This document shows positions 1,251 through 61,077 of a DNA stretch of 64,000 nucleotides, in pieces (the first letter of the stretch is position 1; each line of letters begins with the position of its first letter). The stretch spans positions 11,220 to 75,219 of the forward strand of contig CAYHNU010000001.1 in the NCBI GenBank assembly GCA_964358085.1, given 5' to 3'. Below the pieces are notes generated by a model that had not been told where the DNA came from, ran no database searches, and saw only the letters and a list, made by a program, of their open reading frames with translations. Made by a program: the position numbers and the translations under genes. Origin of the DNA: an uncultured Gammaproteobacteria bacterium (GTDB taxonomy: Bacteria; Patescibacteriota; Microgenomatia; CAZETR01; Amesbacteraceae).

Positions 1251-1783
1251 TTTTAGCCGCTCTCGTCTTGGCTTCCTTGGCCAGCCGCAACCGGTTGGAT
1301 ACCGAAGTCTCCGGCAGTTCTTACTTACCACTCGTTGAAACCCGCCCCATCACTTTCACCCCCATCCATTCGGGTCTAAATATCATCCTTCTTCGCATGA
1401 AGAATCCGAACCTGGCGGACACGTCCGATTTTGTTTTTACACTTAAAGACCAAGCTAACCAGACAGTCCGGGAGCTTAATTTTTCCGGCCGCAACATCGG
1501 TGATCCCAGCGACGTCCGTTTGCAGTTTACCCCCATTCTGGATTCCGCTAATCAACCCCTGACTCTGACCATCATCTCTCCATCTACCTCCGTAAAAATC
1601 GAAAACGGTTTTCGTGCTTACTACCGCACTTCCGGTCTGTCACTTAATTTGGCCCCGCTTACCCGTGATCCTGTCTTTATGGTCGTGTGGGCGTTGCTTG
1701 TATTCGGGCTGACTCGTATCCCTGCGGATCCCAAGTCTTCCCCAAAGTTGCCTCTTCCGGCAAACTGTACACGCCGCCGATAA
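1208..1783 (+). CDS. Hypothetical membrane-anchored exported protein
   Basis: 191-aa ORF with N-terminal hydrophobic anchor 'VFFLGPVIVLAALVLASLA' followed by a soluble Ser/Thr/Pro-rich domain. Its 3' end overlaps the convergent gene 1677..3065 by about 107 bp, so it could be spurious. Confidence 0.3.
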   Translation: MDQLMRVFFLGPVIVLAALVLASLASRNRLDTEVSGSSYLPLVETRPITFTPIHSGLNIILLRMKNPNLADTSDFVFTLKDQANQTVRELNFSGRNIGDPSDVRLQFTPILDSANQPLTLTIISPSTSVKIENGFRAYYRTSGLSLNLAPLTRDPVFMVVWALLVFGLTRIPADPKSSPKLPLPANCTRRR

Positions 1784-3065
1784 ACAACGTGTTTGGCAGA
1801 TTTTGGTCGTCAGGCCAATATATTTTGCGAAATTCAAACTTGCCGAAGTCATATCCTTGCCGTGGTGCTTTTTGATATTCTTCCGGCGGTATTTTGAGAT
1901 AAAACAAAGTAAAAATATACGGCTGGGCCTGCCCAGTTTCCCACACCACGTGGCCATAATTATCGAGTATCGGAGAGATAATCCGCGCCACTTCTTTAAA
2001 TCCCCACTGCCAATCGCCGTAATGGTTATACGGCATCTGCCACAAGGCAGCCAGCACAAACCATCCCAAACTGATAACCGCCCAAGGAATAATCAGCCAC
2101 TTGAGCCATGTTTTAAGTTGTACCCACCCCACCGCGATTAACATGGTATTGGCCGCCCATAACGGCAGCACCCGCACCGGGTTGAACCAGCTCTGGGTAA
2201 TGACCGCCGGCAACGGGGCCAAAGCCAGCCAGGCCACTAACACTTTGTTTTTCCGCCAGTTTTTAATTAGCCACCAAATTCCTGATCCCCAGAAAAATAT
2301 TTCCCATCCGTAATACAGGCCAAATCCATCTACTCGTTGGTTGGGTTCATTGGTGCCCCGGACAAACAAGTTAGCTGGGGAAAAATACGAGAAATATTTC
2401 TGTCCTGCTTCCCGCCAGCTCCCGCCAGCCGATGTCCATCTGGCCCATCCCCCGCTAGACATAGCTATGCCGAACAGAACGATGGCTAAAATTACCCCCA
2501 AGCTCCGCCGGCCCCAGATGAGAAATGGCCATAAATAAATCTTAGCCGAGTGATAGGCAAACACATTTATTCCCGCTATCACCAACCCCAACGTATATTT
2601 CCCTTCTAGAATAAGACACATGGTCGCCAGGATTAATGTCAGAGACAAATTGGCTTCCCATGCCCCGCGCGAGTAAAAAATAGCCCACGGTTCGACAGCC
2701 ATCATTCCCGCCGCGATTAATCCTATTCGCTTCCCCAGCAACTTGGCTGAAATTAAATACAGCAAACCGATACTGGCCACTCCGGCCATCGCCGACAGTA
2801 ATCTGGTATTTATCTCGTTTAAGCCGAATATCCCCACAATCGGAGCCGTCAGATATGCATATAGCGGGGGTTTATAGTCATCGAACGAGCGCAACGATAG
2901 CGGCCACTTTGTTCCATACTCATCCGCCCCGGTTTTCCACAATGAATAAGCGTTATACCCTAGAGCCGCCTCGTCCCAGTTCACCGACCCCGGAGATTTG
3001 TCCAGCCAAACCAGCCGCAAGACGGCTCCCACCACCAGAATGACGATTAATATTTTGCGATCCAT
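1677..3065 (-). CDS. GT39/GT83-family (PMT/ArnT-like) polyprenyl-phosphate-sugar-dependent glycosyltransferase, paralog 1
   Basis: 462 aa, multi-TM. N-terminal loop 'WDEAALGYNAYSLWKTGADEYG', then 'YSRGAWEANLSL'. C-terminal module 'QPYIFTLFYLKIPPEEYQ' is shared with the paralogs at 4310, 7362, 8854 and 10410. ATG confirmed at 3065 (reverse complement). Confidence 0.7.
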   Translation of the reverse strand: MDRKILIVILVVGAVLRLVWLDKSPGSVNWDEAALGYNAYSLWKTGADEYGTKWPLSLRSFDDYKPPLYAYLTAPIVGIFGLNEINTRLLSAMAGVASIGLLYLISAKLLGKRIGLIAAGMMAVEPWAIFYSRGAWEANLSLTLILATMCLILEGKYTLGLVIAGINVFAYHSAKIYLWPFLIWGRRSLGVILAIVLFGIAMSSGGWARWTSAGGSWREAGQKYFSYFSPANLFVRGTNEPNQRVDGFGLYYGWEIFFWGSGIWWLIKNWRKNKVLVAWLALAPLPAVITQSWFNPVRVLPLWAANTMLIAVGWVQLKTWLKWLIIPWAVISLGWFVLAALWQMPYNHYGDWQWGFKEVARIISPILDNYGHVVWETGQAQPYIFTLFYLKIPPEEYQKAPRQGYDFGKFEFRKIYWPDDQNLPNTLFIGGVYSLPEEATLGKTWDPQGYESARIQATPTRP

Positions 3066-4270: not shown

Positions 4271-4300
4271 TTGATATTAAGCTCACGGACCTCGTATAAT
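4271..4300 (+). promoter_or_regulatory. Candidate sigma70-like promoter (TTGATA - 18 bp - TATAAT) in the divergent gap, driving the long plus-strand operon
   Basis: ttgata at 4271-4276 and tataat at 4295-4300, with an 18-bp spacer. ATG of the downstream gene at 4310. Confidence 0.3.
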
Positions 4301-4309
4301 CAAGTCTAC

Positions 4310-5860
4310 ATGCGCCGTTTACTGATTCTGGCCCTGGTCATCGGATCACTCACGCGTTTACTATGGCTCACTCGTTACCCGGTTGGATTTACTCCGGATG
4401 AAGCCGCTTTTGGCTACAACGCTTATTCTCTTCTGCTCACCGGCCGTGATGAATGGGGAGTCCCGTGGTGGCAATTGTTTTTTACCAACCTCCGTTCCTT
4501 TGGGGATTACAAACTCCCCCTTTACACTTTCTTGGCTATTCCTTCCGTTAAAATTTTCGGTTTGACTGAATTTGCTGTCCGTTTGCCCAACGCGGTCTTT
4601 GGCATTCTGGCCATAGGCGCCGTTTATCTGCTGGCCAATAAACTTTTTCCCCGCTCCGGTTCCATCGCCGCCCTCCTTCTGGCCATCTCTCCCTGGCATG
4701 TCCAGCTTTCCCGGGGGGCTTTCGAAGCCAATCTGGCTACCTTTCTCTTGCCTATGGGGATTTACCTGTTTCTAGAGAACAAGACCCTCTTTTCCACCCT
4801 ATTCTTTACCGCTGCCGCCTATTCCTATCATTCAGCCAGGCTAATTTTACCCTTCATTTTGGTCTTTATCTTTGTCAACTTCCGCAACAAATTCAAACCT
4901 CTCCTGCTTATTCCCCTTATAGTTTCACTATGGGGATTAAGTTCGGCCCGGGTGGCCGACGTGAGCATTTTCAGCCCCACTGATAACTGGTTGGGAGTGG
5001 CCACCCGCCGTTTTGAGGCCCGGGCTCTGGGTCTTCCGGACCAGATTGCCCGCGTTTTTTCCAACAAGCTGGTTTATTCCCTCTCCACTTTTTCTCAAAA
5101 TTATATTTCTTACTTTTCCCCCAATTTCCTTTTTACCTCTGGAGCTGGTGAGCCCTTTTACGGCATGATGCCGGGCAGGGGAGTGCTTTACTTAATTGAA
5201 CTGCCAATTTTGGTTTTGGCTCTGCTTTACTTTATCCGCAAACCCTCCCGATCAGTTTTCCTGTTACTAATACTCATAGCCCTGGCTCCTATCCCCGCCG
5301 CTCTGGCCAAAGGTCCGGGAGCCGCCGCCAACCGCGCCGTAATTATGCTTCCCTGGTTAATCATTCTTCTTTCCACCGCCATCGTCCGCCTCCCCCGCCA
5401 GTGGCTGACTCTCGTGATCGGCGCCTATATTACCAGCTTCGTTTTCTTTGGAGAGGATTATTTATACCACTCACCCTATCTTGCCGCTCCCTCCATGTCC
5501 TACGGCTGGCGGGATTTAATGCCGCGGCTTCAGGCCTTTACTGACCGTTTCCCCGACGTGCGTTTCAGCAGATCGCTCTCCGAGCCGCACATTTTCGTGG
5601 CCTTTTACACCCGCTTTGATCCCCGGGAGTATCAAAAAGCTTCTGCTTCTTGGCCTCGCAACGTTAAGTTTCTGGACCAATTCGACGGCTACTATTTAGG
5701 CAAATACCGGTTCGGAGTTATTCATCCCGCCGATCCGGTAACCATTCCTACTTTGTACATCGGCAAACCCGAAGATTTTTCGCCGGATTTCCCCGAATAT
5801 TTCCACATTAATTACCCGTCTTCCCGTCCAGCTATCATAGTTGCTCAGAAGCTTCCATGA
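4310..5860 (+). CDS. GT39/GT83-family (PMT/ArnT-like) glycosyltransferase, paralog 2
   Basis: 'PDEAAFGYNAYSLLLTGRDEWG', 'LSRGAFEANLATFLL', C-terminal 'EPHIFVAFYTRFDPREYQ'. Multi-TM. ATG at 4310 (TTG alternative at 4271). Confidence 0.7.
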   Translation: MRRLLILALVIGSLTRLLWLTRYPVGFTPDEAAFGYNAYSLLLTGRDEWGVPWWQLFFTNLRSFGDYKLPLYTFLAIPSVKIFGLTEFAVRLPNAVFGILAIGAVYLLANKLFPRSGSIAALLLAISPWHVQLSRGAFEANLATFLLPMGIYLFLENKTLFSTLFFTAAAYSYHSARLILPFILVFIFVNFRNKFKPLLLIPLIVSLWGLSSARVADVSIFSPTDNWLGVATRRFEARALGLPDQIARVFSNKLVYSLSTFSQNYISYFSPNFLFTSGAGEPFYGMMPGRGVLYLIELPILVLALLYFIRKPSRSVFLLLILIALAPIPAALAKGPGAAANRAVIMLPWLIILLSTAIVRLPRQWLTLVIGAYITSFVFFGEDYLYHSPYLAAPSMSYGWRDLMPRLQAFTDRFPDVRFSRSLSEPHIFVAFYTRFDPREYQKASASWPRNVKFLDQFDGYYLGKYRFGVIHPADPVTIPTLYIGKPEDFSPDFPEYFHINYPSSRPAIIVAQKLP

Positions 5861-7407
5861 AAAAAATCCTCTTACTGCTTCTCATCCCCACATTTTCTTT
5901 GATGTTGCGTCCCGGTATTTTTACGATGCACGATTTCCACGTCTTCCGCCAGTTTGAATTTGGCAAATGCGTTGCCGCCAAAACTTTTCCTTGCCGCTGG
6001 GCGCCGGATGCGGGGATGGGTTACGGCGAGCCGGTATTTAATTTCTACGGTCAGTTTCCTTACTGGATTGGCCAGATATTTCACGCCTTCGGTTTACAAA
6101 CAATTGATTCTGTCAAAGCCAATTTTATTTTGACAATAATAGTTTCAGCCGTGGCCATGTTTTACTTGGGCAAAAAATACTGGGGAAATCTAGGCGGGGT
6201 AGTAGCGGCTCTTTTTTATGTTTACGCTCCTTACCGGGCAGTGGACGTCTGGGTTCGCGGTTCTCTCAACGAAGCATATGCCCTGGCCTTATTTCCTTTG
6301 ATTTTTCTCTCGTTGGATAATTTCCTTGACGATCACCAACCCCGGCATCTCTGGTGGTTAGTTTTATTTGCTTCCGCTCTACTCATAACCCACAACATAT
6401 CCGCACTCATGATTGCCCCGTTTTTGGCTATATGGGTTTTCAAAAAATCTCCCGTGCCTTTCTCTCGCCTCATCGCCGCCGGAGCTGCCGTCTTTCTTTT
6501 AAGCGCTTTTTATTTGCTGCCCGTTATTTTTGAAAGTCACCTGGTTACTTTAAACCGCACCACCACCGACTATTATTCTTACCAGCTCCATTGGACCACT
6601 CTCAAGCAGCTCTTTATCTCCCGCTTTTGGGGTTATGGCGGCTCCGTTTGGGGCCCTAACGACACCATGAGTTTCTCCGTCGGTTACCTACAGTGGATCG
6701 TGCCGGTTCTAGTAGGTATATATTTTTTAATTAGGAAATTCAGGCATTCATTAGGTCAATTAGAAATTAGGTCAATTAGAAATTTTGCAGTATTCATTTC
6801 ATCAGCCTTCTTCGCTATTTTTCTCACTCACGGCAAGTCGGAATTTATCTGGAAACTTTTCCCTCCTTTAGCTTACGTCCAGTTCCCCTGGCGTTTCCTA
6901 GCCGTGGCAACCTTCTTTCTGGCCCTCTCTTCCGGCGCCATCGCGCAAGTGTTTCCCAAAAAATTATCAATCATCTTAATCAGCTTAGTTATCTTAATTA
7001 ACTTCTCCTTCTTCCGTCCCGATATTTGGCGTAACATCACGGACCGTGAACAATTTTCAGGAGCCTTGTGGGACGAGCAACGTTCTTCGGCTCTAAATGA
7101 TTTTTGGCCCCGCACAGCTCCCCAGTTACCCCGTTTTTTCGCCCCATCCCAACCTCAGGTTCTTCTTACTACAGATACTTACCAAAAAATCCAATACCCC
7201 ATTGTTTATTTCCCCGGCTGGAAATCGGAAGTTGAACTTTTCCCCTTCGGTCCGCTGGGTTTAATTACCGCCCGAGTCCCGCTAGACACGCAAATTACCC
7301 TGAAATTTACCGATACGCCTGTCCGGATCATCGGCAACATTACTAGTCTGGTCGCTGTGCTATGTCTCATCTTAAGTGGCTATTACTTATTGTCGCGGCG
7401 GGTTTAA
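5857..7407 (+). CDS. Large polytopic membrane protein of unknown function (possible GT-C glycosyltransferase)
   Basis: 516 aa, about 12 hydrophobic segments. N-terminal 'HDFHVFRQFEFGKCVAAKTFPCRWAPDAGMGYGEPVFNFYG'. ATGA overlap with the upstream stop. Contains a perfect 16-bp x2 tandem repeat at 6751-6782. Confidence 0.45.
   Translation: MKKILLLLLIPTFSLMLRPGIFTMHDFHVFRQFEFGKCVAAKTFPCRWAPDAGMGYGEPVFNFYGQFPYWIGQIFHAFGLQTIDSVKANFILTIIVSAVAMFYLGKKYWGNLGGVVAALFYVYAPYRAVDVWVRGSLNEAYALALFPLIFLSLDNFLDDHQPRHLWWLVLFASALLITHNISALMIAPFLAIWVFKKSPVPFSRLIAAGAAVFLLSAFYLLPVIFESHLVTLNRTTTDYYSYQLHWTTLKQLFISRFWGYGGSVWGPNDTMSFSVGYLQWIVPVLVGIYFLIRKFRHSLGQLEIRSIRNFAVFISSAFFAIFLTHGKSEFIWKLFPPLAYVQFPWRFLAVATFFLALSSGAIAQVFPKKLSIILISLVILINFSFFRPDIWRNITDREQFSGALWDEQRSSALNDFWPRTAPQLPRFFAPSQPQVLLTTDTYQKIQYPIVYFPGWKSEVELFPFGPLGLITARVPLDTQITLKFTDTPVRIIGNITSLVAVLCLILSGYYLLSRRV
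6751..6782. repeat. Perfect 16-bp x2 tandem duplication ttaggtcaattagaaa inside the CDS 5857..7407 (contains the ttagaaattag core)
   Basis: Direct read. Encodes SLGQLEIRSIRNF. Confidence 0.8.
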
Positions 7408-8864
7408 CTCTAAGGCTCGCTGCCATTAATTTTTTACCGCCTAGTCTCAACTGGGACGAAGTGTCACTGGGTTACAACGCTTATTCACTTCTCAAAACGG
7501 GCCGGGATGAATGGGGGACAATCCTGCCCACCATTATTCGCGCTTATGGAGACTACAAGTTACCTATTTACGTTTATTTAGCTGTTACTTCGCCGTTCTT
7601 TATCCGTTTACCTTCAATTATTTTCGGCACTCTGCTTATCATAGTTACATATCTATTAGGTCGACGGCTGGCTTCTCCGTTCGTTGGTCTGACTTCAGCT
7701 CTGCTGATAGCCATTTCCCCCTGGACCTGGTGGATATCCCGCATCGCTCTGGAGGCCAACGTGGGAGCCCTGCTTATCGCCATAGGCATCTACTGTCTAC
7801 TTGCCCGCAAACTTAATCTGGGAATACTTTTTCTGGGTCTATCCGTTTGGGCTTATAATTCCGCCCGCGTCTTCTCTCCGCTTTTCTTGACCGGCTACTG
7901 GTTAATCAATCGTCCCAAACTAACTCCTATCCACTATTCTCTAATTTCTATTTTCTTTATTCCTATGATTTTCCAACTCTTATCCTCCTCCGGCCAGGCT
8001 CGCTTAAACTGGCTGACCATTCTTGATTCTGGGGCCATCACCCAGATAAACCAGCTGCAATCCCGTCCCGGCGGCCGACTGGTGTACAACAAAGCCACTT
8101 ATTTCCTCTATCGCTTCGGCCAAAACTATATTTCCTATCTCTCTCCCAATTTCCTGTTTCTTAAAGGCGGCAATCATTATCAATTCAGTGTCCAAAACTA
8201 TGGCTTGCTATATTTAATTTGTCTGCCATTTTTTTATATTGGGATTTGGTATTTATTTAGAAATTATAAATTAGAAAGTAGAAATTCGTTGCTGTTGTGG
8301 TTACTGCTGGCGCCGGTCGCTGGCAGCCTTACCCGCGATGCACCCCACGTCCTGCGTGCCATCCCTTTGCTTCCTCTCCCCATGATCCTCACCGCCATCG
8401 GCCTGGACCGCTTCGGCCGCAATGTTAAGGTTCTCTTCTTCGTCGTCTTACTACTATCAACTATGAACTATTTATTCGTAACTAAAAGTTATCGCAATAA
8501 CTTTTCGGATGCCTGGCAATACGGTTATTCTCAAGTAATTCAATTTATTAAACCGCTGTATTCCCAATACGATCAAATCGTTTTTACCAAGAAATATGGC
8601 GAACCGCACGAATTCGTGGCTTACTTCTGGCCCTGGGATCCCGCCGATTTTTCCCAAAATAAGTCTTGGGACTACCACGCTAATTGGTATTGGGTGAACA
8701 GTCTGGACAAGATTAAGTTCGTCAACGATTGGGAGATTAGCACCATGGCGTTTAAACCAAACACTTTAGTTATTTCCAGTCCTGAAAGTGAAATTTCCGG
8801 CCGCGAGATAAAAAGGATTAATTTTCTCAATGGCCAGCCAGCCTTTATTATTTATGAAATCTAA
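7362..8864 (+). CDS. GT39/GT83-family (PMT/ArnT-like) glycosyltransferase, paralog 3
   Basis: 'WDEVSLGYNAYSLLKTGRDEWG', 'ISRIALEANVGALLI', C-terminal 'EPHEFVAYFWPWDPADFSQ'. ATG confirmed at 7362. Confidence 0.7.
   Translation: MSHLKWLLLIVAAGLTLRLAAINFLPPSLNWDEVSLGYNAYSLLKTGRDEWGTILPTIIRAYGDYKLPIYVYLAVTSPFFIRLPSIIFGTLLIIVTYLLGRRLASPFVGLTSALLIAISPWTWWISRIALEANVGALLIAIGIYCLLARKLNLGILFLGLSVWAYNSARVFSPLFLTGYWLINRPKLTPIHYSLISIFFIPMIFQLLSSSGQARLNWLTILDSGAITQINQLQSRPGGRLVYNKATYFLYRFGQNYISYLSPNFLFLKGGNHYQFSVQNYGLLYLICLPFFYIGIWYLFRNYKLESRNSLLLWLLLAPVAGSLTRDAPHVLRAIPLLPLPMILTAIGLDRFGRNVKVLFFVVLLLSTMNYLFVTKSYRNNFSDAWQYGYSQVIQFIKPLYSQYDQIVFTKKYGEPHEFVAYFWPWDPADFSQNKSWDYHANWYWVNSLDKIKFVNDWEISTMAFKPNTLVISSPESEISGREIKRINFLNGQPAFIIYEI
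8256..8287. repeat. AT-rich degenerate repeat tttagaaattataaattagaaagtagaaatt inside PMT-like paralog 3 (encodes FRNYKLESRN)
   Basis: Contains the ttagaaa/agaaatt cores seen at 6751, 13742 and 42941. Confidence 0.55.
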
Positions 8865-10413
8865 AATTCTGCTCATATTTATTGTTTTACTCGGGTCTGG
8901 ATTGAGATTGTTTCACTTAGGCTCTCGCCCATTGGGTTTCACTTGGGACGAAGCCGCACTCGGCTACAACGCCTACTCGCTTCTCAAAACCGGCCGTGAC
9001 GAATACGGAAAAATTTTGCCCGTGGTTCTCAAATCTTTCGGCGACTATAAACCCGGAGTTTATGCTTACCTGGCTGTTCCCAGCATCGCCACTCTCGGCC
9101 TGTCTGAATTTGCCACCCGCCTTCCCTCGGCCATTTTTGGCACCTTGCTCGTTATCGTTGTTTACCTTCTTACTCGAAACGCATTTACTGCTCTGCTTTT
9201 AGCCATCAATCCCTGGTCACTCTATTTCTCCCGTGGAGCGTGGGAAGCCAACATCGCTTTGGTTTTCACCACCCTGGGTGCCCTTTTGTTTATCAAACGC
9301 CGGTATTTAACATCGGCCCTCTTCTTTGGCCTGACATTTCTCACTTACCAAGGAGCTAAAATGTTCACCCCCTTGCTTCTGGTTTCCCTTTTTTTGATTT
9401 ACCGTCCCAATATTAAATTATTAATCAAACCCCTAATTTTCCTGTTTCTCCTGTTTCTCCCCATCCTCCTGGGTCTTGGCACCCAATCCGGCCGTTTGAA
9501 AGTCTTTAGTGTCTTCAGCTACACCCGCCGTCCTGACACCATTGTGGAAATAAAACGCCAGGACAAAAATAACCCTTTCCTTTTCACTCTCTTCGATTCA
9601 GAAATCATTGATCAGGGCAGGGGAGTGCTGCAAAGATATTTAAATCACCTCTCGCCTTATTTCCTGTTCTTCGCCGGTGATTGGCAAAACCTGCGCCATT
9701 CTGTTCCGTACTACGGTTACTTCCACCTCCCCGAAATACTGACCATTCTCATTGGCCTCGTCGTCTTACTACGAACCAATAACCAACTAACTAAGCTTCT
9801 GATAGCTTGGTTGCTTTTGGCTGCTTTGCCTTCGACTCTGTCACGCGACCTGGTCTCCGGCGTTCGCTCATTGCCCCTTCTCGTTCCGCTAATTATCATT
9901 TCCGGAATCGGCCTTGCCCAACTATTTCGTCATCGTTTCCTCTTATACTCTTACACTCTTATACTCTTGTTTTTCTTTGTTTATTATCTCGACTTATTTT
10001 ATGTTCACTCTCCCAATTTCACTGCCGCCGATATGCTTTATCCATACAAACCGGCCTTGACCCTGATTAAACAACATCTGGGGGAATATCAGCGAGTCAT
10101 TATCTCCGATAAGCTCGGCCAGCCATATATTTTTACCCTTTTTTATCTGCGCATTGACCCACTGGAGTACCAGCGTCAAAGCCAGTTGACAGCCAATCCC
10201 CAGGGGGACGTGGGCCATGTTGACCGCTTTGACCAATTTGTTTTTCGCCCGCTTTTTTTGCCCGAGGATAGGTATCTACGTTCCACAATTTTGATAGGGG
10301 ACAGATACGAGCTACCTGACCCAGATCTACCATCTATTCCCAACCTAGTCATGCTGGGGGACATTAAATATCCCAATGGCGCCCCGGGTCTGAAAGTGAT
10401 CGGTCTCAAGTGA
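8854..10413 (+). CDS. GT39/GT83-family (PMT/ArnT-like) glycosyltransferase, paralog 4
   Basis: 'WDEAALGYNAYSLLKTGRDEYG', 'FSRGAWEANIALVF', C-terminal 'QPYIFTLFYLRIDPLEYQ'. ATG at 8854 (earlier ATG at 8830 possible). Confidence 0.7.
   Translation: MKSKILLIFIVLLGSGLRLFHLGSRPLGFTWDEAALGYNAYSLLKTGRDEYGKILPVVLKSFGDYKPGVYAYLAVPSIATLGLSEFATRLPSAIFGTLLVIVVYLLTRNAFTALLLAINPWSLYFSRGAWEANIALVFTTLGALLFIKRRYLTSALFFGLTFLTYQGAKMFTPLLLVSLFLIYRPNIKLLIKPLIFLFLLFLPILLGLGTQSGRLKVFSVFSYTRRPDTIVEIKRQDKNNPFLFTLFDSEIIDQGRGVLQRYLNHLSPYFLFFAGDWQNLRHSVPYYGYFHLPEILTILIGLVVLLRTNNQLTKLLIAWLLLAALPSTLSRDLVSGVRSLPLLVPLIIISGIGLAQLFRHRFLLYSYTLILLFFFVYYLDLFYVHSPNFTAADMLYPYKPALTLIKQHLGEYQRVIISDKLGQPYIFTLFYLRIDPLEYQRQSQLTANPQGDVGHVDRFDQFVFRPLFLPEDRYLRSTILIGDRYELPDPDLPSIPNLVMLGDIKYPNGAPGLKVIGLK
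9441..9460. repeat. Perfect 10-bp x2 tandem duplication cctgtttctc in PMT-like paralog 4
   Basis: Direct read. Encodes FLFLLFL. Confidence 0.6.
9941..9969. repeat. Intragenic 8-bp tandem repeat (tcttaYac)x3.5 in PMT-like paralog 4
   Basis: tcttatac, tcttacac, tcttatac, tcttg. Encodes LYSYTLILL. Confidence 0.6.
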
Positions 10414-12005
10414 AAAATTTTTTGCTGATTCTCATTCTCGTCCTGGCATCCGTTTTACGGCTTTATAAACTTTCCTCCTATCCCGCCGGCCTGAACGCCG
10501 ACGAAGCGGCTCTGGGCTACAACGCCTACTCACTCCTTCTCACCGGAAAGGATGAGCATGGTCATCCTTGGCCGGTCAATCTGGAATCTTTTGGCGACTT
10601 CAAACCTGCCGGTTACGCGTATCTGCTTATTCCCTTTATCAAAGTTTTCGGCCTGACGGAATTCGCCGTCCGTCTCCCCTCGGCCGTCTTTGGGATATTG
10701 GGAGTGTTATTCATTTATTTATTAACTAAGGAATTAATTAACAAGGACTGTGGATTGATTGCAGCTCTTATGCTTACAATTTCGCCGTGGCACCTGCACT
10801 TCTCCCGCGGCGGTTGGGAAGTCAATGTAGCCACCACTCTCATACTTATCGGCGCCTGGCTTTTTCTTAAAAAACGCTTTGCCCTTTGCACTTTGCCTTT
10901 TGCCCTTTCTATGTACACCTACCAGTCTGCCCGCCTCATCGTTCCCCTCATGGGATTGGGTCTATTTTTTCTCTACCGCCCCAAACGAATTTTTATGGCT
11001 TTTGTTTTGGGCTTCTTACTCCTAATCCCTCTAACCTATAACCTAGTCACTACCGACGCCGCCTCCCGTTTGTCCGGCGTGGGGCTTCTGGCCGATGAGG
11101 GGCCTCTCAACCGGGCCAAGGAATTGCGCGGCCAGCATCCCGCTTGGAGCTCTCCTTTGTCCAGAATTTTACACAACCGCCCGGTTTTATATTCCATCCA
11201 ATTTTTGAAAAACTACACCGACCATTTTTTCGGCGACTTTCTTTTTGTTAACGGCGACGTTATACCCCGTAACCGCGTCCCCGAAACCGGCCTGCTCTAT
11301 TTCACCGACTTTATTTTCTTAGGGTTAGGAGCGGTTTATCTACTACGAACTATGAACCATGAACCAAGAACTAAATTGGTTTGGTTATGGCTTGCCATCG
11401 CCCCAATTGCTGCAGCTCTCACTTTCCAAACCCCCCACGCCCTCCGCGCCCAAAACATGGTCATCCCACTGACAATTATTTTGTCATTTGGCATTTATTC
11501 ATTTTTTATTGATTTAAAATTAAAAATTAAAAATTTAAAATTGTTCCGTTTAGTTATTGGAGGTTTTGTGATAGTTTATCTTTGGCAGGTGGCGCGCTAC
11601 TTGCACGAATATTACGTCCATTATCCCCAAACTTATCCATACGCCTGGGAATACGGCTTTAAAGAACTGGTGGCTTACGTGGGATCGGTTCAGGACAAAT
11701 ATGAAAAGATTTTAGTCACCGACAAATATGATCAGCCATACATCATTTTTCTCTTTTATTCCAAATACCCGCCCCAAAACTTCCAGGGCCGCCATACGCT
11801 GACTTTCCGCGACAAATACAACTTTTCCACTGTTCGTGACTACGACAAATTTCATTTTTCCGCCACCCCCTGGACAAAAGTCAGCGACATCCATTCGTCC
11901 CTCATAGTAGCCGCCCCGGAAGATATTCCCGACGTGGGTGTTAATATAGTTAAAACCATTAATTTCCCAAATGACCAACCAGCGTTTAAAATAATTAGTA
12001 ATTAA
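10410..12005 (+). CDS. GT39/GT83-family (PMT/ArnT-like) glycosyltransferase, paralog 5
   Basis: 'ADEAALGYNAYSLLLTGKDEHG', 'FSRGGWEVNVATTLI', C-terminal 'QPYIIFLFYSKYPPQNFQ'. GTG start overlapping the upstream TGA (GTGA). Confidence 0.7.
   Translation: MKNFLLILILVLASVLRLYKLSSYPAGLNADEAALGYNAYSLLLTGKDEHGHPWPVNLESFGDFKPAGYAYLLIPFIKVFGLTEFAVRLPSAVFGILGVLFIYLLTKELINKDCGLIAALMLTISPWHLHFSRGGWEVNVATTLILIGAWLFLKKRFALCTLPFALSMYTYQSARLIVPLMGLGLFFLYRPKRIFMAFVLGFLLLIPLTYNLVTTDAASRLSGVGLLADEGPLNRAKELRGQHPAWSSPLSRILHNRPVLYSIQFLKNYTDHFFGDFLFVNGDVIPRNRVPETGLLYFTDFIFLGLGAVYLLRTMNHEPRTKLVWLWLAIAPIAAALTFQTPHALRAQNMVIPLTIILSFGIYSFFIDLKLKIKNLKLFRLVIGGFVIVYLWQVARYLHEYYVHYPQTYPYAWEYGFKELVAYVGSVQDKYEKILVTDKYDQPYIIFLFYSKYPPQNFQGRHTLTFRDKYNFSTVRDYDKFHFSATPWTKVSDIHSSLIVAAPEDIPDVGVNIVKTINFPNDQPAFKIISN
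10877..10910. repeat. Intragenic 7-bp tandem repeat (ctttgcN)x4-5 in PMT-like paralog 5
   Basis: ctttgcc, ctttgca, ctttgcc, ttttgcc, ctttct. Encodes FALCTLPFALS. Confidence 0.6.
11344..11376. repeat. Motif ctacgaactatgaaccatgaaccaagaact (encodes LRTMNHEPRT) within PMT-like paralog 5
   Basis: 24 of 27 nt identical to 60661-60687. Related copy at 13756-13785. Confidence 0.7.
11516..11543. repeat. 28-bp heptad element aaaatta-aaaatta-aaaattt-aaaattg, in frame within the PMT-like gene (encodes LKIKNLKL)
   Basis: Differs from the 42937-42964 copy only at the first base of each heptad. Same reading frame. Confidence 0.8.
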
Positions 12006-12006
12006 C

Positions 12007-12843
12007 ATGAAGGACCAAAAGAAATTAGCCATATTTGAAGGGAAAAAGATTCGCCGGCATTGGAATGGTGAACAAGAAAAATGGTATTTCTCTGTCGTGG
12101 ATGTAGTATCCGCTTTAACAGATAGCATCGATCCAAGAAACTATTGGAAGGTTCTTAAAAACAGGTTAAAGAATGAAGGAAGCGAGGTGGTTACAAAGTG
12201 TAACCAACTGAAAATGCAGGCTGCAGACGACAAATATTATCTTACCGATGTAGCCGATACAGAAGTAATGTTTCGTATTATTCAGTCTATTCCTTCTCCA
12301 AACGCCGAACCGTTTAAACTCTGGTTAGCCAGGGTTGGCTATGAGCGGATCGAGGAGTCTCAAGATCCAGAACTGGCCATTAACCGGGCTTTAAAAGCCT
12401 ACCTGAGAAAGGGTTATAGCAGAGATTGGATTAACCAACGTTTAAAAAGCATTGAAATTCGAAAAGCCCTGACGGATGAATGGGAAAACAGAGGAGTTAA
12501 GGCTGGCGACGAGTTTGCCATTCTGACTGATGATATTACCTTTGCTTGGGCGGGGATAACTACCAAGCGGTATAAAAATTACAAAGGGCTTAAGAAGGAA
12601 AACCTGCGAGACAATATGACTAATTTGGAATTGGTCTTGGATATGCTGGCCGAAACGGCTACCACCGAAATTTCCCAAAAGCGTAAATCGCAGACATTTA
12701 TGGGTAATCGGCGAGTTGCGAAAGAGGGTGGAGGCATAGCCGGCAATGCCAGAAAACAGATTGAGGCCAAGACTGGCAGGAGAATTGTGAGTAAATACAA
12801 GTTTATCCCTGCAAGTGCTCGAAAAACATTAAAAAACGTATGA
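12007..12843 (+). CDS. DinD-like / BRO-N domain protein (DNA-damage-inducible protein D family)
   Basis: 278 aa. N-terminal 'FEGKKIRRHWNGEQEKWYFSVVDVVSALTDS...NYWKVLKNRL' matches the BRO-N/DinD pattern. Central 'FAILTDDITFAWAGITTKRYKNYKGLKKENL...LAETATTE' matches my recollection of E. coli DinD. Starts 1 bp after the upstream stop, and its stop overlaps the next start (ATGA). Confidence 0.55.
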   Translation: MKDQKKLAIFEGKKIRRHWNGEQEKWYFSVVDVVSALTDSIDPRNYWKVLKNRLKNEGSEVVTKCNQLKMQAADDKYYLTDVADTEVMFRIIQSIPSPNAEPFKLWLARVGYERIEESQDPELAINRALKAYLRKGYSRDWINQRLKSIEIRKALTDEWENRGVKAGDEFAILTDDITFAWAGITTKRYKNYKGLKKENLRDNMTNLELVLDMLAETATTEISQKRKSQTFMGNRRVAKEGGGIAGNARKQIEAKTGRRIVSKYKFIPASARKTLKNV

Positions 12844-13619
12844 AAAAAATAAAACTCTCCGTAGTTCTGGCCACTCACAACGAGGAGGCCAATATTGTGA
12901 GATGTCTTGAGTCGGTCAAAAACATCGCCGACGAGATAGTTATCGCTGACGAACAATCTTCGGATAAAACAGTGAAGATTGCCAAAAAATTTGCAGCCAA
13001 AGTTATCTCTGTCCCACATAACGATAACTTTCATATCACTAAAAATATCGCTATTGCGTCAGCAACAGGGGACTGGATTCTCCAACTGGATGCCGACGAA
13101 GTCGTCTCCCCCGAACTGGCCCGGGAAATCCAATCCCACCTGAAAGGTGGCCGGAAGGACTCCTTTCAGGTGAACGGCTATTGGATGAACAGAAAAAATT
13201 GGTTTTTAAATCGGTTCTTAACCAAAGGCGGTCAATACCCGGATCCCACTCTCCGCTTCTACCGCCGGGGACTAGGACACCTTCCGGCCGCAAATGTCCA
13301 CGAACAAGCTACCGTCAATGGACCGGTCGGCCGCCTCAAGCACGATTTACTTCACTATCACCACACCACCTTTTCTAAATACATGGATGGATTCAACCGC
13401 TATTCTTCTTTCGCCGCTTCTCAAATGCAAGCTCGTCATGAACCCCTTAATCTACTTAATGCACTTAATCACTTAATCCCTCTCCCCCTATTTACTTTTC
13501 TGAATATCTATTTCCGTCATCTAGGTATGGTTGATGGATATTCCGGATTTGTTTTTGCCCTCTTTTCCGGCCTCACCCATGCCGTTGCCTACATTAAATA
13601 CTGGCAAAGGTCATTATGA
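12840..13619 (+). CDS. GT2 glycosyltransferase, polyprenyl-phosphate sugar synthase-like (ArnC/GtrB-like, C-terminal TM helices)
   Basis: 'KLSVVLATHNEEANIVRCLESV', 'QLDADE' DxD-type motif, C-terminal hydrophobic pair 'LIPLPLFTFLNIYF...FVFALFSGLTHAVAYI'. Confidence 0.6.
   Translation: MKKIKLSVVLATHNEEANIVRCLESVKNIADEIVIADEQSSDKTVKIAKKFAAKVISVPHNDNFHITKNIAIASATGDWILQLDADEVVSPELAREIQSHLKGGRKDSFQVNGYWMNRKNWFLNRFLTKGGQYPDPTLRFYRRGLGHLPAANVHEQATVNGPVGRLKHDLLHYHHTTFSKYMDGFNRYSSFAASQMQARHEPLNLLNALNHLIPLPLFTFLNIYFRHLGMVDGYSGFVFALFSGLTHAVAYIKYWQRSL
13446..13477. repeat. Intragenic tandem repeat (cttaatNNN)x4 in the GT2 gene (encodes LNLLNALNHL)
   Basis: cttaat recurs at 13446, 13455, 13464 and 13472. 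Confidence 0.6.
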
Positions 13620-14605
13620 TCAAAGTCGGTTTTATTACATCTCCCCTGCACGACGCCAATGCTGCCCGCGGCGTCGGCTCCTACACCCGCCGCCTCCTAG
13701 AAAGACTCAAAGTTCAAAGTTCAAGGTTCAATATTGAGATTTTAGAAATTAAAAATGACCATGAACTACAAACTATGAACTATGAACTCGTCCACTACCC
13801 ATACTTCGACTTATTTCGGCATACCTTGCCAATTTTTAATAAATCCAAAATTGTAGTCACCCTTCACGATGTGATACCGTTGGAATTTCCTGATCACTAC
13901 CCCCCCGGTCTCCGCGGCAGGCTTAATCTGCAGTTGCAAAAATTGGCCCTGGCCAACGTAGAACGTGTCATTACCGTTTCCTATGCTTCAGTACAAGCAA
14001 TACGAAAGTATCTGCTTGTACCTCACGCTAAACTCAAACTGGTTTACGAAGCCGCCGACCCCATGTTTAAAAAGATTTCTAAACCCAAAAACAAATATCA
14101 TCTGCCCAAAAAATTCGTTCTCTACGTCGGAGATGTGAATTGGAATAAAAATATACCCAATTTAGTTAAAGCTTGTGAACAAATAAATTACCCATTGGTA
14201 ATAGTGGGTAAACAAGCAACTGAAGTAGAAAAACTGGACCTAAACCACGCTGAACTGCGGCATTTACAAGGAGTAGATTGGTCGGCCGTTATCCGCTCGG
14301 GTTTTGTGGCAGACGAAGATTTGGTACATATCTACAATTTGGCCACCGTTTACTGCCAGCCGTCCTTATCCGAAGGCTTTGGCCTGCCTGTCGTGGAAGC
14401 CCTGGCCTGCGGCACCCCTGTAGCCTGCAGCAATACTTCATCCTTGCCGGAAATAGCGGAGGATAACGCCACATATTTCAATCCCTATGACGTCGATGAT
14501 ATGTCCCAAGCTATAATTAACGCTAAGCCTCCACAAAGCAAGCCAATGTTTTCATGGGAGGAAACTGCCAAATTGACTCTGATGGTTTATCGGGAAATAT
14601 TATGA
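13616..14605 (+). CDS. GT4 (GT-B fold) glycosyltransferase
   Basis: C-terminal 'QPSLSEGFGLPVVEALACGTPVACSNTSSLPEIAED' is the typical GT4 E-x7-E region. ATGA overlap at both ends. N-terminal region carries repeat insertions (13708-13785). Confidence 0.65.
   Translation: MIKVGFITSPLHDANAARGVGSYTRRLLERLKVQSSRFNIEILEIKNDHELQTMNYELVHYPYFDLFRHTLPIFNKSKIVVTLHDVIPLEFPDHYPPGLRGRLNLQLQKLALANVERVITVSYASVQAIRKYLLVPHAKLKLVYEAADPMFKKISKPKNKYHLPKKFVLYVGDVNWNKNIPNLVKACEQINYPLVIVGKQATEVEKLDLNHAELRHLQGVDWSAVIRSGFVADEDLVHIYNLATVYCQPSLSEGFGLPVVEALACGTPVACSNTSSLPEIAEDNATYFNPYDVDDMSQAIINAKPPQSKPMFSWEETAKLTLMVYREIL
13708..13785. repeat. Composite repeat block in the GT4 N-terminus: (caaagtt)x3, then tta gaa att aaa aat core, then cat gaa cta caa act atg aac tat gaa ctc
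   Basis: Direct read. Encodes KVQSSRFNIEILEIKNDHELQTMNYEL. Confidence 0.7.
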
Positions 14606-41337: not shown

Positions 41338-42158
41338 AGCAGCTAATAGCAAAGATTTGCGACAATCTTTGTTTTGATAAAATATTTTTACTTACTGAGA
41401 ATTTGTCTCTTTTGGAGAAAGTAAAGTATACATTCAGAAAATATTTAACAATAATATTTGGACGGAAAGAAATAGTATATTTAGGTAAGGTTTTCAAATT
41501 TGATAACTCCTTTACTCCAGTGCTTTTGCAAAGTTATCCCCATGAGATTGGTACATTGGATAGAGAAATAAATTTGAATACGATTCATTCGGTTTTGGAT
41601 ATAGGGGCAAATATAGGTCAGTGGTCATTCACATTGAAGTCTTTATTTTCTCATCTGAACGTAATATCACTTGAGCCTAACCCTAAAGTTTTTCCCCTGT
41701 TGCGCGAGAATGCAAAGGGTTTTTCTAAGTGGAAATGTTACAATTTTGGGGTAGGTGATGGGGGTAGACACAAGTACATATATTATTCAGGGAATGGCTC
41801 TTCAGAAGCTAGTATTTATAACAAAATTAGCACCAACAATAAGAAAAAAGATAAAATAGTACCAGTACGCCTAGTAGTTTTAAATAATGGAAAAATAGGT
41901 GGAACTCAAATACCCAATTCGTTTGATTTAGTAAAAATTGACACTGAAGGGTCTGAGCTTGAAGTGTTACATTCAATTAGTAAACTTCATTTTAAGTACT
42001 TGGAAGTAGAAGTATCACTTAAACGAAATAGAGGAGTAACTGTAAAGGATGTCAAAAACTTTTTTAAAAGGCATACTCGTTTTCAGCCAAAATTATTACA
42101 TTTAGATATATTTAATAGTAATTCACCTGTAGCTGATGCAATTTTTTCATTAACATGA
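41334..42158 (+). CDS. FkbM-family SAM-dependent methyltransferase
   Basis: 'VLDIGANIGQWSFTLKSLFSHLNVISLEPNPKVF', 'KIDTEGSELEVL'. ATGA overlaps at both ends. Confidence 0.6.
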   Translation: MKQLIAKICDNLCFDKIFLLTENLSLLEKVKYTFRKYLTIIFGRKEIVYLGKVFKFDNSFTPVLLQSYPHEIGTLDREINLNTIHSVLDIGANIGQWSFTLKSLFSHLNVISLEPNPKVFPLLRENAKGFSKWKCYNFGVGDGGRHKYIYYSGNGSSEASIYNKISTNNKKKDKIVPVRLVVLNNGKIGGTQIPNSFDLVKIDTEGSELEVLHSISKLHFKYLEVEVSLKRNRGVTVKDVKNFFKRHTRFQPKLLHLDIFNSNSPVADAIFSLT

Positions 42159-43363
42159 AGATAAATAAGATTTATTTTTGGTCAATGGCTTCCCATGGCG
42201 CTGGAATTTCTGGAGGCGACAGAATCTTTATGGAATTTGTCAAAAGATGGAGGACAAAGCATCCAGTTACGGTTGTAACTTGGGCAGAAGGGGAGTCCAT
42301 GATGGCTAGAAACAACCTTCTTGAATCCGCAAATGTTTCCTTTCAACGTCTATTGGTTCCAAAAATTATTCGCTTTAATTTTTTATTGTGCTATCTATAT
42401 AGAATAATTATTGGTATTTTCACTGCACTAACCATGCGTCTTGATAGCCCATTAGAACTGTATTTATATTCCTCTTCCGAGTTTTGGATGGACTCACTAC
42501 CTTCTTTTATTTTAAAACTTCGTTACCCCACTATCAATTGGATTGCAACCTGGTACCAAACCGCTCCAAATCCTCTTGTTGGTTTTTCAAATGGCCGTTA
42601 TCGCATAACGGCTTTATTACTATGGCTTTCTCAATTACCAATTAAGCCATTAATTGGTAATTTTGCCGATGTTGTTTTGGTAAACAACGATACCGAAAAA
42701 AAGATATTCCCAAAATCTCAAACAATTGTAGTTTTGGGCGCAGTTGACACCAAACTGATTGAAACCTATATTGCTAAAAATCCTAAAACAAAAAAGAAGT
42801 ATGCAGCTGTCTTTCAAGGTAGATTTCATCCCCAAAAAGGAGTAGTGGAACTCATAGATGTATGGAAAAAAGTGGTTGAGAAAATCCCGGATGCCAAATT
42901 GGCCATGATAGGGGATGGCCCGCTTATGGAAAGTGTGAAATTAGAAATTAGAAATTTGAAATTGGAGAATAATGTTAAATTGTTAGGATATGTTTTTGAC
43001 GGCGATGAGAAATACAAACTATTTGCTCAAAGCAAAATTGTAGTTCACCCGGCCTTTTATGATTCTGGGGGTATGGCCTCGGCTGAAGCTATGGCCTTTG
43101 GTTTACCTTGCATAGGCTTTAATTTACCCGCTTATGAATCGTATTATCCCAAAGGTATGATTAAAATCCCCATCGGTGACTTGAATTCCTTTGCTGAAAC
43201 GATAGTTGACCTACTTAAAAATAATTCCAAACGAAATCTCGTGGGGAATCAGGCGGGAAAATTTATTCGTGGGTCTTATTCTTGGGACTATCGTGCTCGA
43301 GAGATTTTACGGCAAATAGTTGGAACGACAAATCCGGAAAGAAAAAAAGTAGAATCTCAGTAA
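42155..43363 (+). CDS. GT4 glycosyltransferase
   Basis: 'FQGRFHPQKGVVELIDVWKKV', 'HPAFYDSGGMASAEAMAFGLPCIGFNLPAY'. Contains the 28-bp (gaaattN)x4 element at 42937-42964. Confidence 0.6.
   Translation: MKINKIYFWSMASHGAGISGGDRIFMEFVKRWRTKHPVTVVTWAEGESMMARNNLLESANVSFQRLLVPKIIRFNFLLCYLYRIIIGIFTALTMRLDSPLELYLYSSSEFWMDSLPSFILKLRYPTINWIATWYQTAPNPLVGFSNGRYRITALLLWLSQLPIKPLIGNFADVVLVNNDTEKKIFPKSQTIVVLGAVDTKLIETYIAKNPKTKKKYAAVFQGRFHPQKGVVELIDVWKKVVEKIPDAKLAMIGDGPLMESVKLEIRNLKLENNVKLLGYVFDGDEKYKLFAQSKIVVHPAFYDSGGMASAEAMAFGLPCIGFNLPAYESYYPKGMIKIPIGDLNSFAETIVDLLKNNSKRNLVGNQAGKFIRGSYSWDYRAREILRQIVGTTNPERKKVESQ
42937..42964. repeat. 28-bp heptad element gaaatta-gaaatta-gaaattt-gaaattg, in frame within the GT4 gene (encodes LEIRNLKL)
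   Basis: Direct read of the sequence. Near-identical copy at 11516-11543. Confidence 0.8.
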
Positions 43364-60464: not shown

Positions 60465-61077
60465 AGATAAATCCGTTATCCTTCCGAGTTGTCTGGAAAG
60501 CGTTCGGCAGGTGTTTGACGACGTGGTTATCGTTACCAACGCCGACCATAAATTTATAAATTACGCTGACCAAAAAAATTACGCAGCAAGCAAATGCAAA
60601 TACGACTGGGTTTTGTCTTTAGACGCGGACGAAGAGCTTTCTCCAGAGCTTATCCACGAACTACGAACCATGAACCATGAACTATACGCCGCCTTTAAAA
60701 TCCCCAGATTAAATATCATTTTTGGCCGTCCCATGTTCCACACTAACTGGGAACCCTCTGCCGATACCCACATCTGGTTATATGACAAGACCAAGTGCAA
60801 ATGGGAGGGCAATGTTCACGAAGAAGTCGTCGCCAATGGCCCGGTGGGAACTTTACGGGCTCGCAAAATTCATCACAGTTACCAGACCGTTGAAGAATTT
60901 ATGGACAAAATGAACAATTACACCTCCCGCGAAACTAAAATAGTCAATCCGCTTTTTGATTTTCTCCGTCGCTACATCTGGCACAAGGGATTTTTGGACG
61001 GTTGGCACGGGTTATTCTTAAGTTATTTGATGGCTGTTTATCATACAGTGACATGGGTAAAGAAAAATTCTTCCTGA
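60439..61077 (+). CDS. GT2-like glycosyltransferase (short, LPS-core-type family 2 architecture)
   Basis: 'MISVSIIAKDKSVILPSCLESV', 'LSLDADEELSPEL'. ATG at 60439 overlaps the upstream gene by 26 bp. Contains the ctacgaaccatgaaccatgaacta motif. Confidence 0.5.
   Translation: MISVSIIAKDKSVILPSCLESVRQVFDDVVIVTNADHKFINYADQKNYAASKCKYDWVLSLDADEELSPELIHELRTMNHELYAAFKIPRLNIIFGRPMFHTNWEPSADTHIWLYDKTKCKWEGNVHEEVVANGPVGTLRARKIHHSYQTVEEFMDKMNNYTSRETKIVNPLFDFLRRYIWHKGFLDGWHGLFLSYLMAVYHTVTWVKKNSS
60661..60687. repeat. Motif ctacgaaccatgaaccatgaactatac (encodes LRTMNHELY) within the GT2-like gene
   Basis: Direct read. Shares ctacgaacNatgaaccatgaac with 11344-11376. Confidence 0.7.

Follow-up and report, generated by a model that had tools for sequence, protein, structure and literature searches.

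In-frame arrays of 7-nucleotide repeats in glycosyltransferase genes of an uncultivated Microgenomates lineage

Microsatellites with units that are not multiples of three are normally kept out of coding sequences, or act there as frameshift switches. How, then, can intact genes carry many of them, and do such repeats change in length? The question is raised by a 64-kb stretch of DNA (the window, meaning the whole stretch analyzed) that is identical to a contig of the Hainich H41 groundwater metagenome and whose proteins have their closest relatives in Candidatus Amesbacteria (Microgenomates; Candidate Phyla Radiation, CPR). In its first quarter, genes for multi-transmembrane (multi-TM) proteins and glycosyltransferases (GTs) are rich in short tandem arrays. 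We suggest, with a probability of roughly 0.6, that these are in-frame heptanucleotide microsatellites, AT-rich products of slippage of which selection retains those that keep the frame, carry no stop codon, and fall where the structure tolerates them. No tandem repeat is commoner in this uncultivated group than 7-nt arrays, nearly all of which are in frame within genes. They keep the same protein sites across genera while their sequences are repeatedly homogenized.

Arrays are in excess of chance and the excess is at period 7. They were called with Tandem Repeats Finder (TRF) and merged. The seven open reading frames (ORFs) between 5857 and 14605 have 15 merged arrays (1.7 per kb), compared with 0.49 per kb over the window's remaining 55 kb. 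The number expected is 1.6 when codons are shuffled, 3.3 when synonymous codons are shuffled and the protein is kept, and 2.5 when shuffling is within local 12-codon blocks. The observed number is thus 5–10 times the expectation, and 0 of 200 shuffles of each kind (0 of 600 in total) reached it. Most arrays disappear on synonymous shuffling, which places the periodicity in the DNA rather than in amino acid composition. In a lag scan, which counts tracts that match their own sequence shifted by a set lag, here with a milder mismatch penalty setting, the whole window has eight tracts at lag 7 versus 0.0 in 40 block-codon shuffles, and zero to two at every other lag. The window arrays are head-to-tail direct repeats of 7 nt, as in the class of heptanucleotide simple sequence repeats (SSRs), and exceed chance as judged by shuffles and neighboring lags.

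The same signal is present in related loci. The comparison set consists of 82 loci, totaling 1.56 Mb, around orthologs of the GT39 paralog of the window (paralog d, below) in Amesbacteria, Woesebacteria, Shapirobacteria, Blackburnbacteria, Collierbacteria, and other Microgenomates. These have 120 tracts at lag 7, compared with 14, 16, and 16 at lags 6, 8, and 9, respectively, a ratio of about 8 to 1 over neighboring lags; harmonics are visible at lags 14 (67 tracts) and 21 (24 tracts). Lag 7 also exceeds all multiples of three combined (51 tracts). The rfb and wca glycosyltransferase clusters of Escherichia coli (50 kb) had zero tracts at any lag at the same threshold. The spread is patchy, with at least one array in 49 of 81 loci (window counted) and a density of 12.0 per 100 kb in Amesbacteria-like loci versus 6.2 in others. 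When the window and related loci are pooled, 122 of 128 arrays (95%) are inside ORFs of at least 100 aa, where they are 19–39 nt long. The arrays are AT-rich (GC of 0.27 vs. 0.39 in host loci) and diverse: the 124 unique ones have more than 60 distinct canonical units. Specificity to membrane proteins was considered and dropped, as density is merely 1.7-fold higher in multi-TM than in soluble proteins (8.9 vs. 5.2 per 100 kb). We found no description of this heptamer-array pattern in CPR bacteria in the literature.

The six arrays outside long ORFs include two, in locus L027, that adjoin masked sequence and were set aside. The other four are intergenic, just upstream of starts, and directly 5′ of a GT-C or GT4 gene (L054 3739–3787, L056 9911–9952, L077 11271–11295, and L084 12416–12441). 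Those of L054 and L056 have six to seven copies of GTGAAAA/GTGATAA, and two of the four are 42 and 49 nt long. Their placement recalls the TAACTGA repeats 5′ of start codons in Beggiatoaceae.

Low complexity, codon bias, or assembly error could also yield apparent arrays, and the weaker TRF matches at 6969, 8453, 9807, and 13196 (scores of 31–39, in Leu/Phe-rich TM segments with no indels) could be ordinary low complexity. For the main arrays, an artifact or chance origin is effectively refuted. The shuffles and the specificity to lag 7 speak against it, and independent assemblies, assemblers, and studies recover the same arrays, which are shorter than reads. We give this explanation almost no credence overall; it survives for the weakest TRF matches alone.

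The region flagged by the original prediction encodes a PTPS-related member and the tandem paralogs b, c, and d, which are multi-TM and GT-C/PMT-like, followed by GT2 and GT4 enzymes. Its genes, with the one directly upstream, are:

4271–5860: first PMT_2 GT-C paralog (Pfam), directly upstream of the flagged region.
5857–7407, plus strand: gene of a PTPS-related (PF10131) multi-TM protein (Pfam and translation), host of the arrays at 6750 and 6969.
7362–8864, plus strand: GT-C-like paralog b, 500 aa.
8830–10413, plus strand: GT-C paralog c, 527 aa, with a weak PMT_2 match (Pfam).
10410–12005, plus strand: GT-C paralog d (GT39/PMT_2, 531 aa), which carries four arrays and is the protein used for the ortholog alignment and structure model.
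12840–13619, plus strand: GT2 gene, host of a 9-nt repeat.
13616–14605, plus strand: GT4 gene, with two heptamer arrays in the N-terminal domain.

The original prediction had listed arrays with units of 7–16 bp, placed them in membrane and GT genes, held that all are within ORFs with frame preserved, and called their density unusual. TRF recovered every listed array:

6750–6784, plus strand: 16-nt repeat in 2.2 copies with 100% matches, a 9 + 7 composite (ATTAGGTCA + ATTAGAA), encoding residues 298–310 (SLGQLEIRSIRN).
9440–9460, plus strand: 9-nt repeat in 2.3 copies, in a poly-Leu/Phe TM segment (FLFLLFLP) of paralog c.
9940–9968, plus strand: 8-nt array of CTCTTATA in 3.6 copies, encoding LLYSYTLILL of paralog c.
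10877–10908, plus strand: heptamer array of CTTTGCC in 4.6 copies, encoding residues 156–167 of paralog d, at the start of TM helix 157–170.
13446–13478, plus strand: 9-nt (LNx) repeat in 3.9 copies with indels, in the GT2 gene.
13707–13731, plus strand: heptamer array of TCAAAGT in 3.6 copies, encoding residues 31–39 of the GT4 protein.

Five further arrays of the same region were missing from that list:

8257–8286, plus strand: heptamer array of the TTAGAAA type in 4.3 copies, encoding residues 299–309 (FRNYKLESRN) of paralog b.
10717–10747, plus strand: imperfect 15/16-nt repeat in two copies, encoding residues 103–113 of paralog d (hot spot i).
11342–11373, plus strand: heptamer array in 4.6 copies of GAACTAT/GAACCAT/GAACCAA/GAACTAA, encoding residues 311–322 (LLRTMNHEPRTK) of paralog d (hot spot ii).
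11512–11542, plus strand: heptamer array of ATTAAAA in 4.4 copies with 0% GC, encoding LKLKIKNLKL, residues 368–378 of paralog d (hot spot iii).
13761–13788, plus strand: heptamer array of ATGAACT in 4.0 copies, encoding residues 49–58 of the GT4 protein, directly before a conserved (I/V)HYP motif.

Three more heptamer arrays are outside the flagged region:

42937–42963, plus strand: array of TTAGAAA in 3.9 copies (KLEIRNLKL), in a second GT4 gene (42155–43363), with the same unit as at 8257.
60654–60682, plus strand: array of ACGAACT/ACCATGA in 4.1 copies (HELRTMNHEL), in a GT2-like gene (60427–61077), of the unit family of 11342 and 13761.
63943–63970, plus strand: weak array of the AACCTAG type in 4.0 copies (NLTPRTYNL), in a GT4-like ORF running off the end of the window.

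The host ORFs of the arrays in the flagged region are intact and have orthologs, Pfam annotation agrees on the kinds of host genes, and the density indeed stands out from the rest of the window and from the shuffles. Two details needed correction. The repeat given as two copies of 10 bp at 9441–9460 exists, but its unit is 9 nt, and arrays span the given range of unit sizes, but the excess is almost all at period 7. The heptamer arrays are ∼25–32 nt long (∼4 copies; 3.6–4.6 copies with 82–94% matches in TRF), with six in the flagged region and three outside, of which the last is weaker.

Where arrays sit in proteins suggests why they are tolerated. In an alignment of 30 orthologous sequences, the arrays of paralog d coincide with indel-prone, hypervariable segments. 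In an AlphaFold model of this protein (predicted template-modeling score, pTM, of 0.74), residues 103–113 are at a helix end and a turn at 110–111, residues 156–167 are at the start of helix 157–170, residues 311–322 span a turn at 315–318, and residues 362–378 cover a helix end and a turn at 373–375. Most arrays are therefore on short inter-helix turns or helix ends, which bears out the loop placement implied by the original prediction. In other genomes, hot spot i has inserts of 10–23 aa, among them GC-rich palindromes.

Such palindromes, which are perfect and in frame, are present at the same hot-spot loops of the GT-C ortholog in other Microgenomates (∼10.3–11.0 kb of the locus), at site ii in L051, L026, L016, and L074 and at site i in L020, L015, L022, and L088. 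They read, for example, CCTGCCTGCCGGCAGGCAGG as LPAGRQG, CCCCTCTCCTAAATTAGGAGAGGGG as SPSPKLGEGG, and CATTCCCGCGAAGGCGGGAATC as IPAKAGIH. The window has no GC-rich palindromic inserts. That unrelated palindromes occupy the loops used by arrays suggests that these sites are permissive to insertion in general.

Codon alignments with two syntenic species (L003 and L006) show several outcomes at the array sites. The repeat at 6750 is an insertion of 10–14 codons relative to both orthologs. Compared with orthologs, the array at 8257 adds six to eight codons to a loop that corresponds by homology to site ii of paralog d. At 11512, the window and L006 have the same array, an insertion of exactly 7 codons (21 nt) compared with L003. 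The array at 9940 is conserved in L003 and shorter by four codons in L006. The repeat at 13446 is conserved in orthologs without indels, and that at 9440 has no indel either, its orthologs being periodic there as well (6-nt units in L006). Finally, the arrays at 10877, 11342, 13707, and 13761 are equal in length to the orthologous segments but have different repeat units. At 10877, length is conserved and the unit differs in concert from those of L003, L006, and L010 (TTTGAGC/TTTGCGY). Orthologs of hot spot ii are equal in length with units such as GACCAAA, CACTACT, and ATCCAAC, and L013 has a related array (CTCAAGG) at the site equivalent to 13707. Across many genera, the site equivalent to 13761 has arrays with other units (ATTAAAA, ATTGGAC, ATTGRAA, AGCTAAR, and TTAGGTCAA). 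The view of arrays as clean 7-residue insertions was rejected, as it is true just for 11512 relative to L003. Across 81 orthologs, loops with arrays are two to four residues longer, with medians of 17 versus 15 aa at site ii (p = 0.02) and 38 versus 34 aa at site iii (p = 0.001).

The reading frame leaves a mark on the repeats themselves. Every 21 nt, a heptamer passes through all three reading phases, and three units encode seven residues. A unit that circularly contains TAA, TAG, or TGA therefore cannot stay perfect inside an ORF. In 45 of 118 in-ORF arrays, the consensus unit contains a stop trinucleotide, and each such array is broken by one altered unit per 21 nt, where the codon reads L, C, Y, S, F, H, or W; in the array at 11512, for instance, one altered unit avoids an in-frame TAA. 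Perfect runs of at least 23 nt occur in none of these 45 arrays and in 24 of the 73 that are free of stops. One intergenic array of the four repeats a stop-containing unit without any interruption.

Units of 7, 8, and 16 nt in intact ORFs are non-triplet, as in contingency (phase-variable) loci, and the original prediction had proposed that the repeats are contingency-like, length-variable tracts that modulate loop lengths. However, most units are not multiples of three, so a change by one unit will frameshift the gene and not adjust a loop. Comparisons of length, which rest on consensus assemblies and could miss rare variants, showed no variation at any scale sampled. Two replicate assemblies of the window population are identical, with no change in array length. 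Four assemblies of the L003 species, a sister species, differ by two to seven single-nucleotide polymorphisms (SNPs) with no array indel. L006 and L007, which are 1.8% apart, differ by 116 substitutions over 6.4 kb with 0 indels, and three arrays are unchanged. A scan of metagenomes with the flanks of the perfect L003 array found one Joint Genome Institute (JGI) record, in which copy number is the same, too little to be informative.

Alleles in an OFF state were equally absent among the sequences compared. None of the 128 pooled arrays is linked to a frameshifted gene, and the six outside long ORFs show no link to a disrupted gene. Truncated members of 90% protein clusters (369, 173, and 271 aa, and others) were rejected as OFF alleles because their breaks are away from array hot spots; the frameshift of P0135 is within a conserved TFQTPHALR motif. 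A 21-nt indel between L003 and L009 was likewise rejected as a slip of three heptamers, as it is a plain deletion in a GT4 gene at L003 14504, where there is no array. In these two Rifle Amesbacteria, which have 2 SNPs in 17 kb, the deletion drops seven codons (KKFVLYV) out of a conserved strand of the GT4 C-terminal domain and may be an inactivating allele.

As contingency loci, the arrays would toggle GT paralogs through 7-nt slips or alter loop lengths, diversifying the cell-surface glycan. Consistent with this, non-triplet units occur in glycan-modifying enzymes, as in NeuO of E. coli (AAGACTC), the many redundant GT-C paralogs could buffer OFF states, and some arrays in relatives are perfect (e.g., GACCAAA in four copies in L003). 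But the arrays have just 3.3–5.6 copies, are mostly imperfect, and never exceed 39 nt in ORFs, compared with 3–53 copies in NeuO. Together with the constant lengths and the lack of array-linked frameshifts, this makes phase variation quite improbable. The part of the original prediction that invoked slippage, or tolerance of it, fares better, in that slippage-type products at the level of DNA and tolerant sites are supported; the contingency part is not.

If lengths are stable, units are not. Length variants in 90% protein clusters map to hot spots ii and iii, as wholesale loop replacements. At site ii, seven species share the unit skeleton NNACYAA, and each has its own substitutions spread over several units (AGACCAA in L003, TCACTAC in L064, NATCYAA in L018, and GAACYAW in the window). 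Identity there is 0.74 among units within an array, 0.56 between positional ortholog units of different genomes, and 0.70 in the flanks. At the TM site (10877), parallel GAG-to-GCC changes are 14 nt apart. Arrays thus evolve in concert at constant length, presumably by transient out-of-register misalignment or by paired contraction and expansion. The DNA surrounding the ATTAAAA array is ∼96% identical between the window (11494–11560) and L006 (7595–7660; 66 of 69 nt), compared with 79% for the proteins overall. Recent recombination of a patch, or strong constraint on this segment, could be the cause.

We infer an origin by polymerase slippage from tandem structure, AT-richness, and concerted evolution. 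In the reading that we prefer, arrays are a trait of the Microgenomates lineage and not a peculiarity of this locus. Slippage or transient misalignment, with a favored 7-nt register in AT-rich DNA, would make heptamers and re-homogenize them. Purifying selection would then keep those with a frame-preserving net length (three heptamers, 21 nt, seven residues) that expose no TAA, TAG, or TGA in any of the three phases, at sites that tolerate a new peptide. Tolerated sites would be short inter-helix turns, helix ends, and variable loops, with A-rich units giving Lys/Asn/Glu/Ile-rich loop peptides and T-rich units giving Leu/Phe-rich membrane segments. Arrays would be abundant in the window's first quarter because it has tandem, fast-evolving multi-TM GT-C paralogs with many permissive turns. 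In this reading, arrays are stable between strains, turn over their units between species at fixed length, and are not high-frequency switches.

Several observations weigh against this scenario. Slippage in action was not seen, as there is no length polymorphism at any timescale sampled. Plain slippage predicts that in-frame units of 3, 6, and 9 nt dominate in ORFs, but 7 nt leads instead. Stepwise growth by 7 nt requires frameshifted intermediates, and none was found. Sharing of units at nonhomologous sites within genomes is higher than expected by permutation (26 vs. 16.8 pairs, p ∼0.02). Lastly, an 18-nt core, TTAGGTCAATTAGAAATT, is an insertion in the PTPS-like gene of the window but is in a GT4 loop in two sister species.

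The last two observations raise the possibility that arrays are imported and not grown, as cassettes copied between sites by template switching, short-patch gene conversion, or a tiny mobile element. The window has 10 matches to ATGAACT-type doublets, at six loci, where 0.55 is expected, and TTAGAAA is found at three sites (6750, 8257, and 42937). Some ∼30 of 128 arrays belong to a family of ATTRRAA units, which occurs on either strand and in a wide range of genomes and encodes peptides such as KLEIGNWKLEI, LKIKNLKLKI, LEIRNLKL, and LKIENCKL. The replacement of whole loops among variants of protein clusters is also as expected from copying. Against import are the diversity of units, the lack of terminal repeats and target duplications, and the shared skeleton of site ii arrays, which evolve in place. 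The 18-mer is scarce, being in 9 of 90 loci, with all nine from three populations, and some of the pairs that share units are paralogous sites. We consider ectopic templating unlikely as the source of the arrays, although the recurrence of units leaves room for it between arrays. As a dispersed element, the 18-mer was rejected because it is confined to those three populations and its five matches in IMG/VR are at chance level. A dispersed mobile mini-element, akin to a miniature inverted-repeat transposable element (MITE), repetitive extragenic palindrome (REP), or Rickettsia palindromic element (RPE), was rejected as well, given more than 60 units, the confined 18-mer, and the absence of palindromes from the window.

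Periodic sequence could alternatively be selected for a function, either as heptamer sites for a CspB-like or S1-like protein that binds single-stranded nucleic acid or as Lys-rich, positive-inside peptides in loops or heptad peptides. From genus to genus, arrays keep their protein sites and their length, those in loops encode K/R/N-rich peptides, and four intergenic arrays are directly 5′ of start codons. In Beggiatoaceae, heptamer direct repeats have been suggested to bind regulators, and each CspB protein takes up a single heptamer (PMC4679880). Yet units are very diverse and in both orientations relative to the coding strand, peptides vary from Lys-rich to Leu/Phe-rich, and the DNA is periodic beyond what the protein needs, as synonymous shuffling showed. 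The unrelated palindromes in the same loops argue for tolerance rather than a specific requirement. Selection for the repeats as such is in our view very improbable.

A bolder proposal is that an active process of Microgenomates writes 7-nt-periodic DNA and remodels permissive loops of surface-glycosylation enzymes, with rare out-of-frame forms as low-frequency switches among redundant GT-C paralogs. It might come from a replication or repair polymerase that is unusually prone to misalign by 7 nt, or from switching of templates among arrays. We regard this as distinctly unlikely; if true, it would be a targeted diversification of proteins different from diversity-generating retroelements (DGRs) and classical contingency loci.

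Over its full 64 kb, the window is one glycosylation island. It has GT4, GT2, epimerase, nucleotidyltransferase-kinase, and flippase genes and no housekeeping genes. Six GT-C/PMT-like multi-TM paralogs are in 12 kb (4271–12005, and 1677–3065 on the minus strand), a notable expansion for a genome of ∼1 Mb. Five of the six are in tandem with overlapping stop and start codons, and synteny is kept across Amesbacteria (L003 and L006). GC content steps from 44–51% in the first ∼16 kb, which has the array of GT-C paralogs and a strongly negative GC skew, to 31–41% across most of the island from 16000 to 64000; different portions of the island may have separate histories. Between paralog d and the GT2 gene is one further gene:

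12007–12843, plus strand: BRO-N domain protein (Pfam PF02498), 278 aa.

The protein matches phage family phrog_15286 over its full length (E = 1e-116), and GC skew and AT skew switch sign at the gene. At this position, L006 lacks the gene and L003 has an unrelated ORF of 558 aa. These sequence features suggest a mobile insertion, or one derived from a phage, at a junction where the cluster varies.

If the in-frame heptamer arrays are genome-wide, they would be a natural record of slippage making loop peptides, three units to seven residues, and would mark sites of GT-C, GT2, and GT4 enzymes that are structurally permissive. They would also give access to the fidelity of replication in CPR bacteria, a group that cannot so far be studied in culture. 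A practical consequence is that recurrent array peptides, such as LKIKNLKLKI, KLEIGNWKLEI, and RTKDQRPKT, could pass for conserved protein motifs.

Known systems resemble the arrays in part. Rickettsia palindromic elements are dispersed, 100–150 nt long, and in frame within ORFs at surface loops. They are like the GC-rich palindromes in the hot spots of related loci in that short foreign sequence is tolerated in frame, but the window arrays are tandem heptamers and the window has no palindromes. In Haemophilus, Neisseria, and Campylobacter, glycosyltransferase genes for lipooligosaccharide and lipopolysaccharide (LOS/LPS) have long hypermutable tetranucleotide or homopolymer tracts, and ON/OFF alleles are common (PMC2651432 for Haemophilus). 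The likeness is in non-triplet SSRs within glycosyltransferase genes; neither long hypermutable tracts nor ON/OFF alleles were seen in our loci. Cyanobacteria have heptamer tandem repeats known as short tandemly repeated repetitive (STRR) sequences. TAACTGA heptamer repeats of Beggiatoaceae, Cyanobacteria, and Bacteroidetes are mostly intergenic, often 5′ of starts, and have up to 43 copies (PMC4679880). Like the arrays, STRR and TAACTGA repeats are heptamers that abound in certain lineages and for which no mechanism is established, but they are a few specific sequences, whereas here dozens of units are inside genes.

The NeuO tract (5′-AAGACTC-3′), in the O-acetyltransferase gene of the CUS-3 prophage of E. 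coli K1, is in frame only when its copies are divisible by 3 (PMC13001214). Its 3–53 copies lie at the 5′ end and vary within cultures, and ∼66% of genomes have the tract out of frame (PMC13001214). The resemblance is close in that both have a 7-nt unit in the coding sequence of a surface-glycan-modifying enzyme with three units giving seven residues, but the arrays of Microgenomates have ∼4 copies, are internal and always in frame, and are unchanged between strains. Borg repeats in ORFs have units that are all divisible by three (PMC9879509), with a periodic peptide; of the window arrays, only those at 9440 and 13446 (both 9 nt) qualify. The amino acid tandem repeats (aaTRs) of Borgs are similar in being fast-evolving, A-biased, in-ORF repeats of an uncultivated subsurface lineage that extend proteins, often extracellular or surface-related ones, by new segments of peptide (PMC9879509). 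The difference is in the unit, which here is 7 nt and gives a peptide that is not periodic below seven residues.

The nearest class is that of the heptanucleotide SSRs, which, in the survey by Mrazek et al. (2007) as summarized in PMC4679880, are the most abundant long-SSR class in SSR-rich prokaryotes. That survey proposes that 7 nt is the length of DNA contacting the polymerase and states that coding regions prefer units divisible by three (PMC4679880). As described there, these SSRs are like the arrays in being 7-nt direct repeats that are above chance and patchy among lineages, and polymerase slippage is the origin proposed for them and the likely one for the arrays. CPR genomes are not in that survey, and the Microgenomates arrays differ in that ∼95% are in ORFs, with ∼4 copies, in frame, and fixed at orthologous sites.

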